Positions 1-4,692 of a stretch of DNA of 4,692 nt are shown piece after piece. Both the position numbers and the translations under genes were made by a program. The DNA is from a virus (lineage: Duplodnaviria > Heunggongvirae > Uroviricota > Caudoviricetes). The notes under the pieces are model-generated. The model had not been told where the DNA came from. It ran no database searches and saw nothing but the letters and a program-made list of their open reading frames with translations. Where the stretch lies: positions 1 to 4,692 of the IMG/VR virus record IMGVR_UViG_2778261344_000003; one strand, 5' to 3'. Position 1 is the stretch's first letter; every line of letters begins with the position of its first letter.

Positions 1-147
1 ATGCTTCCATCAGAAACGATGATCTGGCAGCCTGAGTTCACAGATAAAACACTCTCCAGGAAAACCGGGGCGGTTCAGGTCAGGGTTAACAGCGCCATCA
101 GGGCAAAGCCCATCCAGAGTCTTCGGGTCAGGGTTAAATTCACGGTC

Positions 148-177
148 GGTGCACTTAAGGTGAATAAGTTGTATATT
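148..177. other. Putative att core region (attL or attP core: C/B half-site, overlap, C' half-site), non-lambda specificity
   Basis: Sits about 60-90 bp downstream of the int stop, where lambda has its core. Sequence GCACTTAAGGTGAATAAGTTGTAT; the C'-like half (TAAGTTG) resembles lambda's, but the central part (AGGTGAA) replaces lambda's TTTATAC. Exact core boundaries cannot be set from sequence alone. Confidence 0.4.
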
Positions 178-192
178 TAAAAACTCTTTTAT

Positions 193-205
193 TATCAATG
201 AATTA
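193..205. promoter_or_regulatory. IHF binding site (H'-like) in the P' arm
   Basis: tATCAAtgaaTTA matches the IHF consensus WATCAANNNNTTR and occupies the same position relative to the core and int as the H' site in lambda attP. Confidence 0.45.
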
Positions 206-215
206 ATGTAAGTGG

Positions 216-245
216 GTCATTATTAGTCAAAATAAAATCATTTGT
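216..245. promoter_or_regulatory. Three tandem arm-type Int binding sites (P'1-P'3-like)
   Basis: GGTCATTATT / AGTCAAAAT / AAAATCATTTG are near-identical to the lambda P' arm (GGTCACTATC / AGTCAAAAT / AAAATCATTAT). The int stop codon (238-240) lies within the third site, as in lambda. Fits the lambda-identical N-terminal arm-binding domain of the encoded Int. Confidence 0.55.
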
Positions 246-1311
246 CGATTTCAATTTTGTCCCATTCCCGTCCACGGCTGTCCCTATACCGCGCCGCCAT
301 TAAATCTGATTTATGCCCGAGAAGACGTTGAGCAAACTTATCGCCAATCTGGTTCCGGTATAGCCTCGCTGACAGGCTACGCAGTTCATGGAATGTTGGC
401 GGGTTTCCATCAAATGAGAGTCCAGATGCATTTCTCGCCTTTGTAAAATACTTTGATACTGTTTTCGGGGAAAGCGGATCGTGATGCTTTGATGCGATTA
501 TAGTTTCACTGCTGCTGGCCTCCCTGCATTTCTGTAGTGTATCAGCCAATGAGATATTGAGCGCGTCAATCGTTAGCGTTAGCGGAATGGCGAGTTTAGC
601 CCCTGTTTTACTCTGTTCAATGTGAAGATGGTTGTCGTTTATGTCTGACCATTTCATTCTGCACAAATCGCCGACTCTCTGCCCTGTAACGACGGCCAAA
701 TCCATCGCCAGCCTTAGCCAGATAGGGAGAGGTTCGGCTGCATGGTAAATCTCGACATACTCATTAGCTGTCAGCCTTGAGCGCCTTACTTCTGACTTTG
801 CTGTACGGGTTGCTGTTACCGGATTCGTTGCAACATGCCCCTCGGCTATTGCTTCACGAAAAACGTCAACAAGGGTTGACCTGATTAATTTTGCGGAAGC
901 TGCTTTACCTTCTGCCACGTAGGTGTTTAGCATTGCTGCCACTTCTTTCGTTGATATGTCAGTGAGCGGTTTGTCCGGCAATTTTCTTCGGATTGCCCTG
1001 ATTTTGCTGGCGTAGTCGAGTAGAGTTTTCGGCCTGATCCCTCTTTCGGTGAGGATTCTTTCATATCGGTCAAGCCACACATGAAGAGTGATTGCGTCAC
1101 CGCCTTTAATTCTGTCTATCAGTGATTTGCGTCCGCTGTCTGAGAGTAACTCAATATTGGCCTGTATTGCTTCAGTGATTGCTATCCTCCTGTCTCGGCC
1201 TAATCCAAACTCTTTACCCGTCCTTGGGTCCCTGTAGCAGTAATATCCATTGTTTCTTATATAAAGGTTAGGGGGTAAATCCCGGCGCTCATGACTTCGC
1301 CTTCTTCCCAT
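238..1311 (-). CDS. int: Tyrosine site-specific integrase, lambda Int family (357 aa)
   Basis: ATG at 1311-1309, TGA at 240-238, GAGGA ribosome-binding site 7 nt upstream. The N-terminal ~55 aa (MGRRRSHERRDLPPNLYIRNNGYYCYRDPRTGKEFGLGRDRRIAITEAIQANIEL) match lambda Int as I recall it. Catalytic motifs are present: GQRVGDL (Arg), HELRSLSARLY (His/Arg), LLGHKSDLMAARY (His/Tyr). The core-binding and catalytic regions diverge from lambda. Confidence 0.95.
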   Translation of the reverse strand: MGRRRSHERRDLPPNLYIRNNGYYCYRDPRTGKEFGLGRDRRIAITEAIQANIELLSDSGRKSLIDRIKGGDAITLHVWLDRYERILTERGIRPKTLLDYASKIRAIRRKLPDKPLTDISTKEVAAMLNTYVAEGKAASAKLIRSTLVDVFREAIAEGHVATNPVTATRTAKSEVRRSRLTANEYVEIYHAAEPLPIWLRLAMDLAVVTGQRVGDLCRMKWSDINDNHLHIEQSKTGAKLAIPLTLTIDALNISLADTLQKCREASSSETIIASKHHDPLSPKTVSKYFTKARNASGLSFDGNPPTFHELRSLSARLYRNQIGDKFAQRLLGHKSDLMAARYRDSRGREWDKIEIDK

Positions 1312-1507
1312 TTCTGATCCTCTTCAAAAGGCTACCTGTTACTGGTCGATTTAAGTCAACCTTTACCGCTGATTCGTGGAACAGATACTCTCTGCCATCC
1401 TTAACCGGAGGAGGGAATATCCTGCATTCGCGCACCCATCGACGAACTGTTTCAAGGCTTCTTGGGCGTCGCTGGCGAGCGTTCCACTCCTGAAGTGTCA
1501 AGTACAT
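1289..1507 (-). CDS. xis: Excisionase Xis (72 aa)
   Basis: The protein MYLTLQEWNARQRRPRSLETVRRWVRECRIFPPPVKDGREYLFHESAVKVDLNRPVTG... matches lambda Xis almost exactly. The 3' end overlaps the int start by 23 nt, as in lambda. Confidence 0.93.
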   Translation of the reverse strand: MYLTLQEWNARQRRPRSLETVRRWVRECRIFPPPVKDGREYLFHESAVKVDLNRPVTGSLLKRIRNGKKAKS

Positions 1508-1519
1508 CGCAAAGTCTCC

Positions 1520-1533
1520 GCAATTACACGCAA
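1520..1533 (-). promoter_or_regulatory. cII activator site (TTGC-N6-TTGC) of the pI promoter for int
   Basis: The minus strand reads TTGCGTGTAATTGC just upstream of the xis ATG, matching the lambda pI cII-binding motif in the same position. In lambda the pI transcript starts inside xis, giving int without xis. Confidence 0.6.
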
Positions 1534-1534
1534 G

Positions 1535-1554
1535 AAAAAACCGCCATCAGGCGG
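1535..1554 (-). terminator. Candidate intrinsic terminator (minus strand) between the 55-aa ORF and xis
   Basis: Minus strand CCGCC-TGAT-GGCGG followed by TTTTTT; a 5-bp all-GC stem, 4-nt loop and T6 tract. The stem includes the stop codon of the 55-aa ORF. The stem is short, so strength is uncertain. Confidence 0.35.
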
Positions 1555-1714
1555 CTTGGTGTTCTTTCAGTTCTTCAATTCGAATATTGGTTACGTCTGC
1601 ATGTGCTATCTGCGCCCACAGCATCAAGTGGTCATAGCAGTCGCTGATGTTCTCGGCTTCGATAACTCTGTTGAATGGTTCTCCATTCCATTCACCTGTA
1701 ACTCGGAAGTGCAT
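1547..1714 (-). CDS. Small conserved hypothetical protein (55 aa), not in the supplied ORF track
   Basis: Hand translation of the minus strand: ATG at 1714-1712, TGA at 1549-1547, GGAG 7 nt upstream of the ATG. Product MHFRVTGEWNGEPFNRVIEAENISDCYDHLMLWAQIAHADVTNIRIEELKEHQAA. It sits where lambda has a ~55-codon ORF between xis and ea8.5. Confidence 0.6.
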   Translation of the reverse strand: MHFRVTGEWNGEPFNRVIEAENISDCYDHLMLWAQIAHADVTNIRIEELKEHQAA

Positions 1715-1722
1715 TTATCATC

Positions 1723-1752
1723 TCCATAAAACAAAACTCGCCGTAGCGAGTT
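1723..1752 (-). terminator. Candidate intrinsic terminator (minus strand) downstream of ea8.5
   Basis: Minus strand AACTCGC-tacg-GCGAGTT (7-bp stem, 4-nt loop) followed directly by TTTGTTTTATGG. It lies between the ea8.5 stop (1803) and the start of the 55-aa ORF (1714). Confidence 0.45.
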
Positions 1753-1802
1753 CAGATAAAAGAAATCCCCGCGAGTGCGAGGATAGTTACTTGTTCATAT
1801 TA

Positions 1803-2084
1803 TTAATCGTCAATGTATTTTGAGCATTGTGGGCAATCATCGATCCCACAATACGATTCATATGCATCCTTTATTGCGTCGCGGGCTTCAGTAAGAGTAT
1901 TGAATAAGTTGCAGCTATTATCTTTTTGATATAGGTAAGTTCCTAATTTATAAGCAGAAGAAGCATCATTTCCGCTGTCTAAAATTACATCGTTATGGAT
2001 TCTGCACCTTGCAAGAACTCCTGATCCCATAAGGGTCTGCATAGCCCATTGCTCTTGATCTTCACACAAATCATGAATGCTCAT
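1803..2084 (-). CDS. ea8.5: Ea8.5-like protein (93 aa), Cys-containing putative zinc-binding protein
   Basis: The ORF track starts at a GTG (2102); I place the start at the ATG 2084-2082, which has GAGG 7 nt upstream and yields 93 aa beginning MSIHDLCEDQEQWAMQ. Stop TAA at 1805-1803. Same size and position as lambda Ea8.5, with a C-terminal CPQC motif. Confidence 0.8.
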   Translation of the reverse strand: MSIHDLCEDQEQWAMQTLMGSGVLARCRIHNDVILDSGNDASSAYKLGTYLYQKDNSCNLFNTLTEARDAIKDAYESYCGIDDCPQCSKYIDD

Positions 2085-2183
2085 TTCAACACCTCTCTTC
2101 ACGTTTCACACACGTTAAGATTAACAGTGTTTTTACATGCTTTGGAAGATTTATTTTATAAAAACTCTTTTAATACAAATAGA

Positions 2184-2203
2184 TATAATAGTTCACTATT
2201 ATA
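2184..2203. repeat. Perfect 9-bp inverted repeat with 2-bp spacer (TATAATAGT-tc-ACTATTATA)
   Basis: Seen directly in the sequence. It overlaps the stop codon of the 2199-2996 gene and carries a TATAAT hexamer on both strands. Confidence 0.55.
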
Positions 2204-2996
2204 GCTCCTTTAATCGAGGCGGTTCTGGTAGAGGCATCCAGTGGGTTACACCGCCAATTGGCTCATCGTCGTCGTACTCCAATGCGGTTATATAGAACCC
2301 GTCACGACGAGAATAAGAAATCCCGGACATTACAATGCCATCCGAAACAACAATAATGTCACCCGTTTCTTTCGGCATTCGCTCACTACAGCTTATCCAA
2401 CCATCCGGAGTCACCGGAAGCGAGAACGGCAGCACATCTCTGTGAACAAGTTTTTGCTGTGACAGGTTATCCAGAACTTTCTGTACTGCTGCATCACCGA
2501 ATACACCAAGCGCATCTGCCATAACTCCTACAACCTGATAAGCCTCAGCGCATACCGTGGATAAACCATCCGGAATTACCGGAGAGTTGCCGGGTTCTTT
2601 AATGTGCAAGCGAGGCTCACCATCTTTTGGTTCAGGCCACTGGCGCTCCATGTTGATCTTCAATTTATCTTCCATAGCAGCGGTAATTTCAGCATCGCTG
2701 ATGCCAGCACGGCGCTGTGCATCCCACAACAGGAAATGCATATCAGCCCACTCGCTGAGATCGTCTGGTTCGACTGCGGCTTCCAGAGCCTCTTTTGAGA
2801 GGTGTTTCAGTGGACCAATGGGGCCAACGCAGCCAAATGTGGAGTCAGACCATTTGGCATGCTCGTGGCGAATCAGTTCGCGTTCCAGTGATGCCAGTGC
2901 AATTCGTGCCAGTTCCATTTGTTCGCCACGAGTAAGCCCGTTTTCAAGCGGATTTTTAATGAACAATTCAATACGTTCTTTGGTAATAGTGGGCAT
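2199..2996 (-). CDS. Two-domain phage protein (265 aa): N-terminal MazG-like dATP/dGTP pyrophosphohydrolase domain (DUF550) plus C-terminal DUF551
   Basis: ATG at 2996-2994 with AAGGA 7 nt upstream; TAA at 2201-2199. The N-terminal half has acidic-helix motifs typical of all-alpha NTP pyrophosphohydrolases (KEALEAAVEPDDLSEWADMHFLLWDAQRR; ISDAEITAAMEDKLKINMER). The C-terminus ends in the W...VTHWMPLPEPP pattern I associate with DUF551. Family assignment is from memory, not a search. Confidence 0.65.
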   Translation of the reverse strand: MPTITKERIELFIKNPLENGLTRGEQMELARIALASLERELIRHEHAKWSDSTFGCVGPIGPLKHLSKEALEAAVEPDDLSEWADMHFLLWDAQRRAGISDAEITAAMEDKLKINMERQWPEPKDGEPRLHIKEPGNSPVIPDGLSTVCAEAYQVVGVMADALGVFGDAAVQKVLDNLSQQKLVHRDVLPFSLPVTPDGWISCSERMPKETGDIIVVSDGIVMSGISYSRRDGFYITALEYDDDEPIGGVTHWMPLPEPPRLKEL

Positions 2997-3006
2997 TTGT
3001 TAGTCC

Positions 3007-3762
3007 TTAAAGTGCTAGTTGCAATTGCATTTCAAAGCGGTCGCGTTGTTCACAATACGCAAGAGAACCAGGGCTATTGTGTGCCTCAATCCGTTCTACC
3101 ATTAATGCTGCGCGTGTCTCTTTACTTGCAGGTGCATAAGCCCCAGACCAGGCTTTATCAATACCGATGTTTCGAGCGACGTTCGTACTATCTGCGCTGG
3201 CTAAGGGTAATTTTGTGAATATCAGCGGATTTAACATGCGCAATCCATGTAGTTTCGTAACCGGCTGACCATGCCCATCAACAATGTGACGAATCAGGTC
3301 TTTCATTCTGGCTACCGCAAGAGTTGGGCGCTTTACGTCATAGTCGCCACAACTACCGATAGCCACTCGCGGAAACTCATTGCACAAATGAATAAATCGC
3401 TCGTCACTTTCATTCATGTGCCACACTGGAACGCCAGCTAGTTTTCCGTGAGGCCACTCATTCAGAAGCGCATCATTTTCCTCCTCTCCGCCATCAATAA
3501 CATCCGAGATAATGGCAAAATCGAATCCTGGGTGATTCTTCCAGCGAGCAACAAACTCGTAGTAATCGCTCCAGTCGATTTTGTTTTTGCCAGCTGCTTT
3601 CCAGGCGGTGAATGCACCGTTGTCCAGCGCGAACGACTGACAGTATTCAGCCGCGAGATTGATCTGGCCTGAATGCGCAAAACTGATAAACGCATGTCGC
3701 CCTTTCCATGCTCTCATTGCGCACGTATCAGGAGTAATAGGCCCACCGTGGTAGTGAATCAT
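3007..3762 (-). CDS. Hypothetical protein (251 aa); tentative TGT (tRNA-guanine transglycosylase)/DpdA-like TIM-barrel fold
   Basis: The track ORF (3007-4005) would overlap ea22 by about 240 nt. I place the start at ATG 3762-3760, one nucleotide after the ea22 TGA, with AAGGAG 6 nt upstream. Four collinear motifs resemble TGT catalytic segments with similar spacing: ALDNGAF (cf. LTDSGGF), AIISDVIDGG (cf. IVMIFDECT), RVAIGSCG (cf. RYLMGVG), ADSTNVARN (cf. FDCVMPTRNARN). There is no C-terminal Cys/His zinc cluster. Confidence 0.5.
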   Translation of the reverse strand: MIHYHGGPITPDTCAMRAWKGRHAFISFAHSGQINLAAEYCQSFALDNGAFTAWKAAGKNKIDWSDYYEFVARWKNHPGFDFAIISDVIDGGEEENDALLNEWPHGKLAGVPVWHMNESDERFIHLCNEFPRVAIGSCGDYDVKRPTLAVARMKDLIRHIVDGHGQPVTKLHGLRMLNPLIFTKLPLASADSTNVARNIGIDKAWSGAYAPASKETRAALMVERIEAHNSPGSLAYCEQRDRFEMQLQLAL

Positions 3763-3763
3763 C

Positions 3764-4402
3764 TCACTCTCCTTTGATGCGAATGCCAGCGGCGCGCTCG
3801 GCTTCACTTTGTTCCCAAAACCACTTGTGAAGCTCCATAAGCTTTTCGTCAATCGGTGCATATTTGCGATTAAAGTAGGCCTGAGCATCTTTCTCAGATT
3901 CGTCCGGCAATTCGCCTGGGCCAAACAGTGTGTTATAAATCCATGCCAGTCCGCTTTTAGCGTCGCCAGTTGCCTGCCATTCGATAATCGCAGCCTGCAT
4001 GACAAGAATGTTTTTCCCGATTAACAGGTCCAGTTCTTTGTACCGGTTGCGGATGTATGCATTCTCGCTTTGTAATTTTGCGTTGCGCTTTTCTGAGGCT
4101 TCAAGTAACGCCTGCTTATCGCGTAGCGCTTCTTCCAGTTCAGCAACATGGCATTCACTATCAATAAGGTTGTTCTCTGCTGCTTCCAGCTCAACACGCA
4201 GCTTCCCTACCGTAAGAGCAATATCCTCGTTCTCCTGGTCGCGGCGTTTGATGTATTGCTGGTTTCTTTCCCGTTCATCCAGCAGCGCCAGCACAATCGA
4301 TGGTGTTACCAGCTCATGGAAAAGGTCCGCATCAAATCCCCAGTCGTCATGCATTGCCTGCTCTGCCGCTTCACGCAGTGCCTGAGAGTTAATTTCGCTC
4401 AC
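3764..4402 (-). CDS. ea22: Ea22-like protein (212 aa), mosaic
   Basis: GTG start at 4402-4400 overlapping the upstream TGA (GTGA); TGA stop at 3766-3764. The N-terminal ~75 aa (MSEINSQALREAAEQAMHDDWGFDADLFHELVTPSIV...) and the last residues (GIRIKGE) match lambda Ea22 as I recall it. The central coiled-coil-like segment and C-terminal domain differ. Confidence 0.85.
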   Translation of the reverse strand: MSEINSQALREAAEQAMHDDWGFDADLFHELVTPSIVLALLDERERNQQYIKRRDQENEDIALTVGKLRVELEAAENNLIDSECHVAELEEALRDKQALLEASEKRNAKLQSENAYIRNRYKELDLLIGKNILVMQAAIIEWQATGDAKSGLAWIYNTLFGPGELPDESEKDAQAYFNRKYAPIDEKLMELHKWFWEQSEAERAAGIRIKGE

Positions 4403-4620
4403 TTCGAACCTCTCTGTTTACTGATAAGCTCCAGATCTTCCTGGCAACTTGCACAAGTCCGACAACCCTGAACGGCCAGACGTCTTCGTTCATCTATGGG
4501 ATCGCCACACTCACAACAATGAGTGGCGGATATAGTCTGGTAGTTCAGACGACGCATTTTTATTGCTGTATTGCGCTGTAATTCTTCAATTTCTGATGCT
4601 GAATCAATGATGTCCGCCAT
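4399..4620 (-). CDS. TraR/DksA-family C4 zinc-finger protein (73 aa), lambda orf73-like
   Basis: ATG at 4620-4618, TGA at 4401-4399. The protein MADIIDSASEIEELQRNTAIKMRRLNYQTISATHCCECGDPIDERRRLAVQGCRTCASCQEDLELISKQRGSK has a CxxC-N17-CxxC zinc finger and matches the lambda TraR homolog at this position. Confidence 0.85.
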   Translation of the reverse strand: MADIIDSASEIEELQRNTAIKMRRLNYQTISATHCCECGDPIDERRRLAVQGCRTCASCQEDLELISKQRGSK

Positions 4621-4692
4621 CTTTCATTAATCCCTGAATTGTTGGTTAATACGCTTGAGGGTGAATGCGAATAATAAAAAAGGAGCCTGTAG

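Follow-up and report, generated by a model that had tools for sequence, protein, structure and literature searches.

S-2L MazZ, the relative with a solved structure, is a (d)GTP-specific enzyme with a MazG-HisE fold (PMC8342488). Its metal ligands are strictly conserved among MazZ-1 homologues except E34, the acidic positions E35, E38, E50 and E53 are also kept in MazZ-2, I56 and D60 are guanine determinants, and R83 sits on the beta-phosphate (PMC8342488). A second characterized enzyme, a DUF5664-DUF550 fusion encoded by Acinetobacter phage SH-Ab 15497, hydrolyzes dGTP and dATP to their monophosphates and gave Pfam family PF04447 (formerly DUF550) its present name, 'dATP/dGTP pyrophosphohydrolase' (PMC12884076, PMC8342488); a DUF5664 protein alone is a deoxynucleoside triphosphate (dNTP) pyrophosphohydrolase (PMC12884076). 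DUF551 has been described as a portable domain (PMC10834534) and is carried by YfdS (PMC4776307). The literature on DUF550, DUF551, EaA, MazG anti-defense and DpdH yielded no functional study of enterobacterial Eaa proteins. The present analysis concerns an Eaa-type gene, referred to as the target, at positions 2199-2996 of a 4,692-nucleotide stretch of tailed-phage DNA (IMG/VR record IMGVR_UViG_2778261344_000003, positions 1 to 4,692), which as a whole is referred to as the window.

The overall reading, held at a probability of about 0.7, is that the target is an Eaa accessory gene with a MazZ-1-type core that does not form a functional unit with the DpdA-like gene immediately upstream of it. 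It is an ordinary, already annotated Eaa accessory gene of lambda-like E. coli prophages, and its product is named 'dATP/dGTP pyrophosphohydrolase domain-containing protein' in RefSeq (NZ_AP038976, 100% match). An earlier note, made from the letters of the window, had proposed a DUF550 and a DUF551 domain in this reading frame. Both were recovered by Pfam scan with scores far beyond chance: PF04447 at residues 42-137 (E=8.2e-41, 138.6 bits against a cutoff of 23, model positions 1-96 of 97) and PF04448 (DUF551) at residues 199-260 (E=7.5e-14, 52.8 bits against a cutoff of 22, model positions 1-67 of 68). The description as a two-domain protein was too simple, as dissection with PHROG and phmmer resolved four modules, each of which occurs independently in other proteins:

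2199-2996, minus strand: target Eaa-type gene, 265 residues, ATG start (open reading frame list, Pfam PF04447 and PF04448, RefSeq name)
2874-2996, minus strand: N-terminal module of about 41 residues, 'eaaN' (MPTITKERIELFIKNPLENGLTRGEQMELARIALASLE), residues 1-41 (phrog_3323 and phrog_10451 match residues 1-45)
2586-2873, minus strand: DUF550/PF04447 core, residues 42-137 (Pfam, MazZ profile match)
2403-2576, minus strand: helical linker, residues 141-198 (phrog_28884 matches residues 145-195)
2217-2402, minus strand: DUF551/PF04448, residues 199-260, a small beta domain

For the N-terminal module and the linker, even a Pfam scan with lenient settings returned nothing usable, and the target has no match in NCBIfam. 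Helices at residues 145-165 and 168-180 of the linker were predicted by AF2 with low confidence.

The DUF550 profile built from alignment A5, which includes the window core, matched PDB entry 7ODY, 'MazG-like pyrophosphohydrolase (MazZ)' (E=4.1e-12, 13-103 of 111 residues), and hhalign placed the DUF550 core with S-2L MazZ at 97.6% probability. MazZ was reached only by the DUF550 profile containing the SH-Ab 15497 domain; PDB searches with the single sequences of the target and of the 251-residue DpdA-like protein gave no match. Judged by these profile alignments, the target core is homologous to S-2L MazZ, the member with a solved MazG-HisE fold. The earlier assignment of the N-terminal domain to the all-alpha dNTP pyrophosphohydrolases thus drew its support from homology, and that of the C-terminal domain to DUF551 from Pfam. 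The functional residues of S-2L MazZ were paired with residues of the window protein as follows:

Window E69: S-2L E35, metal ligand
Window E72: S-2L E38, metal ligand, after a two-residue shift of the gap printed by hhalign, read from the sequence
Window E82: S-2L E50, metal ligand
Window D85: S-2L position 53, metal ligand (printed as E53 in PMC8342488; the sequence has Asp)
Window F88: S-2L I56, guanine determinant
Window D92: S-2L D60, guanine determinant
Window R118: S-2L R83, on the beta-phosphate

E69, E82, D85, D92 and R118 are invariant in alignment A5. E72 falls outside the invariant list: the MAFFT column at that position has the His of the SH-Ab 15497 sequence, and in this region the hmmsearch alignment pairs KEALE with HEIPE of SH-Ab 15497. 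The target core therefore carries the ExxE ... ExxD metal-binding acids and the catalytic Arg of the MazG-like superfamily, in the MazZ-1 form. Because E69, E72, E82, D85, D92 and R118 are all kept, the catalytic apparatus appears intact, and we infer a pyrophosphohydrolase with a preference for (d)GTP as the biochemical activity best supported.

Several observations weigh against the overall reading. With I56 replaced by Phe, the base-pocket residues may differ, so a guanine preference is uncertain; D92, the D60 equivalent, is the one residue that would argue for it. The AF2 model has four helices across the core at low confidence (pLDDT 36-63), and the fold is therefore assigned from sequence homology. 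The Pfam name cannot be safely transferred or taken at face value, since the characterized SH-Ab 15497 enzyme is a divergent two-domain fusion (34% identity over 71 residues with the window protein) and its DUF5664 domain may itself be active. That enzyme (32865-34022 in its phage genome) matches PF04447 weakly (E=5e-8) and bears an N-terminal PF18909 (DUF5664) domain, which the window protein lacks. Finally, among 5426 complete E. coli genomes, 201 had the DpdA-like gene and 500 had this DUF550 allele, with the two genes adjacent in 101, so that half of the E. coli DpdA-like loci (101/201) carry the target gene and some lineage-specific cooperation of the two genes in E. coli is conceivable. 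As a separate observation, either the DUF5664 or the DUF550 domain may be the source of the published SH-Ab 15497 activity.

The favored explanation can be laid out in steps. The Eaa gene belongs to a lambda-like E. coli prophage and lies in its early-left region (int-xis ... ea22), and residues 42-137 of its product constitute an apparently intact MazZ-1-type, MazG-fold nucleoside-triphosphate pyrophosphohydrolase, predicted by homology to form the usual MazG-type oligomer. E69, E72, E82 and D85 would bind two or three Mg2+/Mn2+ ions, and R118 would act on the beta-phosphate. The alpha-beta bond of (d)GTP, and possibly of dATP, would then be cleaved to yield the monophosphate and pyrophosphate, with D92 placed at the position that reads guanine N2 in S-2L MazZ. 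The target would be transcribed together with the DpdA-like gene but does not form a conserved functional unit with it. Its most plausible role would be to act, early in infection, on the guanine-nucleotide pool or on a nucleotide signal that figures in the conflict between phage and host.

The target proved to be a module-shuffled gene. An exhaustive search of 1.84 billion representative proteins (E<=0.001, 50%-identity clusters) returned 4817 clusters for the DUF550 core. In the top matches the core is 50-95% identical and sits at many positions within proteins of 140-457 residues; of the top 149, about 43 have DUF551 in addition, and in about 84 the N-terminus is extended by a further domain longer than 50 residues. 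The core also recovered 525 phage records by tblastn, mostly from Klebsiella siphophages and P22-like phages and often annotated 'EaA' or DUF550. Three modules, namely the N-terminal segment of about 40 residues, the linker and DUF551, are recombined around this conserved core. Presence or absence of the linker is independent of DUF550 and DUF551, and eaaN heads genes downstream of the DpdA-like gene with or without DUF550 and is also found in loci devoid of the DpdA-like gene. Alignment A3 shows that DUF551 is conserved at both ends (DGWISCSERMPE ... VTHWMPLPEPP) but wholly different in the middle between proteins otherwise 97-100% identical, which points to diversifying selection or to recombination at these ends.

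The N-terminal module of about 40 residues was found to head Eaa genes with many differing C-terminal parts. In E. coli ATCC 25922 and O104:H4, RefSeq trims this module or calls it a pseudogene fragment despite a continuous frame. A tie between the module and the DpdA-like gene was considered and rejected, as the module also heads Eaa genes where that gene is missing.

The alternative that survives best, although we consider it unlikely, is a role in anti-defense or host takeover. The MazG-like core would destroy (p)ppGpp or a second messenger, or deplete dNTPs, and DUF551 would target a host or defense protein, its variable middle mirroring an arms race. E. coli MazG acts on ppGpp. The position of the gene in an early accessory region beside other auxiliary genes is consistent with such a role, as are the extreme conservation of the catalytic core amid heavily shuffled flanking modules and the hypervariable middle that DUF551 shows between near-identical proteins; in addition, MazG-like domains are predicted effectors that target nucleoside triphosphates in conflict systems (bioRxiv 10.64898/2026.01.15.699771). 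However, the target protein has no match in PADLOC and no functional category in PHROG, the literature yielded nothing that ties DUF550 or DUF551 to anti-defense, and the presence of D92, the guanine determinant, is what one would expect of an ordinary (d)GTPase like MazZ.

The earlier note had further proposed that the target is translationally linked to a TGT-like gene upstream and that the two constitute a nucleotide-pool or DNA-modification module. The features concerned are:

3007-3762, minus strand: DpdA-like gene of 251 residues ('singleton' type), a DNA-guanine transglycosylase homologue and upstream neighbor; context for the target, and not its demonstrated system partner
2997-3009, minus strand: junction, consisting of the TAA stop of the DpdA-like gene and 10 nt (GGACTAACAA) with an AAGGA Shine-Dalgarno sequence (from the sequence)

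The TGT-like character of the neighbor was substantiated by a match of the 251-residue protein to phrog_887, 'queuine tRNA-ribosyltransferase' (E=3.6e-102), and by hhalign comparison of its family profile with the characterized Iggy DpdA (97% probability, E=9.5e-11) and with WildeMaa DpdA (94.7%). The family, already published, is thus homologous to a characterized DpdA and, with a TIM-barrel TGT fold, falls in the DpdA/TGT superfamily. The protein had no match in Pfam (including no Pfam TGT), NCBIfam or PADLOC, and the family profile had none among PDB sequences. By tblastn, 137 phage records were recovered, including BTP1, SPN3UB, SfI, HK106 and 7-11, as well as, more distantly, annotated DpdAs. 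LDNGAF (D47) pairs with LDSGAF, and SADSTN (D191) with SCDSSS, of phage DpdAs, both being invariant in alignment A1. D47 and D191 may correspond to catalytic aspartates of the bDpdA/TGT type, as suggested by the motifs and not by alignment to bDpdA. The third Asp is ambiguous, either D87 or D90. In bDpdA itself, three invariant active-site aspartates have been described, D95, D130 and D256 (PMC10164549). The neighbor belongs to the published gamma-proteobacterial 'singleton DpdA' cluster; HK106, SfI, SPN3UB, BTP1, SEN1 and Athena1 are listed among the phages with DpdA only, and the hosts of such phages supply the precursor (Hutinet et al. 2019).

The 10-nt distance between the two genes given in the earlier note is exact: the TAA of the DpdA-like gene occupies 3009-3007 and the target ATG 2996-2994. 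The AAGGA Shine-Dalgarno sequence overlaps this stop codon 7 nt before the target ATG, and no promoter-like or terminator-like site was found between the two genes. Since both lie in the same tightly packed operon, the target would be co-transcribed with the DpdA-like gene. The same kind of junction, of 8-10 nt, precedes many unrelated genes downstream of the DpdA-like gene. Close packing extends to the operon as a whole: 1 nt separates the stop of the ea22-like gene from the ATG of the DpdA-like gene, and between the dksA-like and ea22-like genes there is a 4-nt overlap.

Co-occurrence was assessed from both ends, starting from the DpdA-like gene and from DUF550. With one genome per species, 78 loci contained a relative of the 251-residue protein, and phage S107 was added to give 79; the immediate downstream open reading frame was callable in 72 of these 79. 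By Pfam scan, PF04447 and PF04448 were absent from that frame in all 72 species-level loci, where the downstream neighbors were instead MT-A70, C-5 DNA methylase, GPA, PAPS-reductase-like, NinB, RusA and other proteins. A rescan with our own hidden Markov models within 4 kb of the DpdA-like gene detected DUF550 in 3 of the 78 loci, never adjacent, and DUF551 in 1. The 80 viral contigs closest in their DpdA-like gene (86-100% identity) encode 63 distinct downstream proteins, with DUF550 in 10 and DUF551 in 20; the remaining proteins have neither domain and include Lar, RusA, NinB, HNH and DUF968 proteins. Where the DpdA-like genes themselves are 98-100% identical, the gene that follows shares the junction and, in most cases, the opening N-terminal module, after which it continues as DUF550-linker-DUF551, as DUF551 only, or as unrelated sequence.

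From the other end, 80 viral contigs were taken whose DUF550 cores are closest, each with at least 900 nt upstream; 17 have the DpdA-like gene and 63 lack it, eight of the latter having exactly the four-module architecture of the target. About 400 of the 500 E. coli genomes with this DUF550 allele lack the DpdA-like gene. In E. coli ATCC 25922, O104:H4 and FDAARGOS_1372 the gene region is devoid of the DpdA-like gene and always located between xis and ea22, and two of these three loci still have the N-terminal module. Because co-occurrence of the two families is not conserved across genomes, a conserved two-gene module is not supported and the pairing put forward earlier does not hold. The adjacency instead reflects common descent within a single E. 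coli prophage lineage, together with the mosaic make-up of the 'ea' region.

These counts bear directly on the proposal that the hydrolase would serve the DpdA-like transglycosylase by tuning guanine pools or clearing deazaguanine dNTPs, to which we attach a low probability, below that of anti-defense. The adjacency itself, the 10-nt junction with its Shine-Dalgarno sequence over the stop, and the pairing in half of the E. coli genomes with a DpdA-like gene speak in its favor. MazZ-type enzymes are, moreover, integral to another phage pathway of DNA-base replacement, that of the Z-genomes (PMC8342488), and the position after DpdA holds DNA methylases and Lar elsewhere, suggesting a DNA-modification or anti-restriction neighborhood. 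The proposal is countered by the species-level and close-relative surveys, by the DUF550 loci and E. coli genomes without the DpdA-like gene, and by the eight occurrences of the complete architecture apart from it. It is also countered on biochemical grounds, as DpdA inserts the free base preQ0 after replication (PMC10516641) and needs no dNTP hydrolysis. Since this free 7-deazaguanine base is inserted post-replicatively and the hosts supply its precursor, there is no metabolic rationale for linking the enzymes; GTP hydrolysis would in fact deplete the preQ0 precursor, and Hutinet et al. found that these phages encode only DpdA.

In the slot after the DpdA-like gene, the 8-10-nt junction is kept and the contents vary, comprising MT-A70 (3 loci), C-5 DNA methylases (2 loci), PAPS-reductase-like proteins and Lar. 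This variety hints at a DNA-modification or anti-restriction neighborhood. The slot could accordingly be viewed as a dedicated cassette, with a constant junction and often the module of about 40 residues joined to interchangeable effector domains such as a MazZ-like hydrolase, DUF551 variants with a hypervariable middle, a methylase or Lar; this strikes us as a little less probable again than a two-gene module. Equally doubtful is the corollary for the window, that in this E. coli lineage a MazZ-like (d)GTPase cooperates with the DpdA-like enzyme, for example by shaping the guanine/deazaguanine pool or countering a guanine-nucleotide-dependent defense, the two forming a lineage-specific DNA-modification or anti-defense pair. 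A house-cleaning pyrophosphatase that clears non-canonical or damaged dNTPs at prophage induction with no specific partner is very improbable, for although the DUF551-bearing YfdS has been tied to oxidative-stress sensitivity (PMC4776307, PMC10834534), the characterized proteins nearest to the target (S-2L MazZ and the enzyme of SH-Ab 15497) have canonical nucleotides, dGTP, GTP or dATP, as substrates.

The window is a 100% match to E. coli O103:H2 strain 129, and its layout is akin to that of int-xis-ea8.5-ea22 in phage lambda and in Stx-converting phages; from what is established for lambda, we take it to be the accessory portion of the early-left operon. Every gene in the window is on the minus strand:

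238-1311, minus strand: integrase
1289-1507, minus strand: excisionase
1547-1714, minus strand: 55-residue phrog_676 open reading frame
1803-2102, minus strand: Ea8.5-like gene
3764-4402, minus strand: Ead/Ea22-like gene
4399-4620, minus strand: DksA/TraR-type zinc-finger gene

Around the target, a Pfam scan of all open reading frames of the window identified only integrase, Xis, Ea8.5, Ea22 and DksA-like proteins; no homologue of the PurZ adenylosuccinate synthetase or of the DatZ HD phosphohydrolase was found nearby. The setting is not a Z-genome cluster (purZ-mazZ-datZ) and, with no PurZ or DatZ near it, the target is not part of the Z-genome pathway.

Two side observations were made in this region. 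Three terminator-like hairpins were found on the coding strand at 1784-1765, 1753-1734 and 1557-1538 (within 1534-1784, minus strand), located 3' of the Ea8.5-like gene and between the 55-residue frame and xis; nine terminator-like sites were observed in the region compared with 2.6 expected from shuffles. The C-terminal domain of the Ea22-like protein (residues 101-199) matches the PADLOC model 'DpdH' (PDLC02890, E=7e-36) and has no match in NCBIfam, and its gene is directly upstream of the DpdA-like gene. This domain was considered as a conserved partner of the DpdA-like protein and rejected, the two being together in only 3 of 159 loci (L080, L083 and L115).

Had the pairing been true, the singleton DpdA genes found in enterobacterial prophages would have gained a first partner, and with it a testable pathway. 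The target instead belongs to a well-populated family, already annotated, for which the biochemical type is now sharper, namely a MazZ-1-like core with apparently intact catalytic residues. The locus also illustrates that tight spacing in mosaic lambdoid operons is not proof of functional coupling.

Compared with known systems, the neighbor shares 92% identity with the proteins of BTP1 and SPN3UB, in the singleton DpdA group, and 67% with that of SfI; DNA modification in that group is putative, and no partner gene has been described for it. The SH-Ab 15497 enzyme has PF04447 and the ExxE...ExxD motif in common with the target, but its gene adjoins purZ and datZ. Ea22 variant V2 of Stx phages and YfdS of the cryptic prophage CPS-53 carry the same portable C-terminal DUF551, joined there to other N-terminal parts. 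P22 EaA and the 'Eaa' proteins of lambdoid and P22-like prophages and of Klebsiella siphophages belong to one family with the target and occupy one genomic region, although their flanking modules vary from phage to phage; the 'EaA' of Salmonella phage S107 has only the N-terminal 40 residues in common with it. S-2L MazZ differs in lacking the N-terminal, linker and DUF551 modules added to the window core, in having I56 where the window has Phe, and in the purZ/datZ neighborhood that is missing here. It nevertheless shows homology over the whole core of about 100 residues, with the metal ligands, the guanine-reading Asp and the catalytic Arg kept, and its MazZ-1 subfamily is likewise prone to fusions with other domains.
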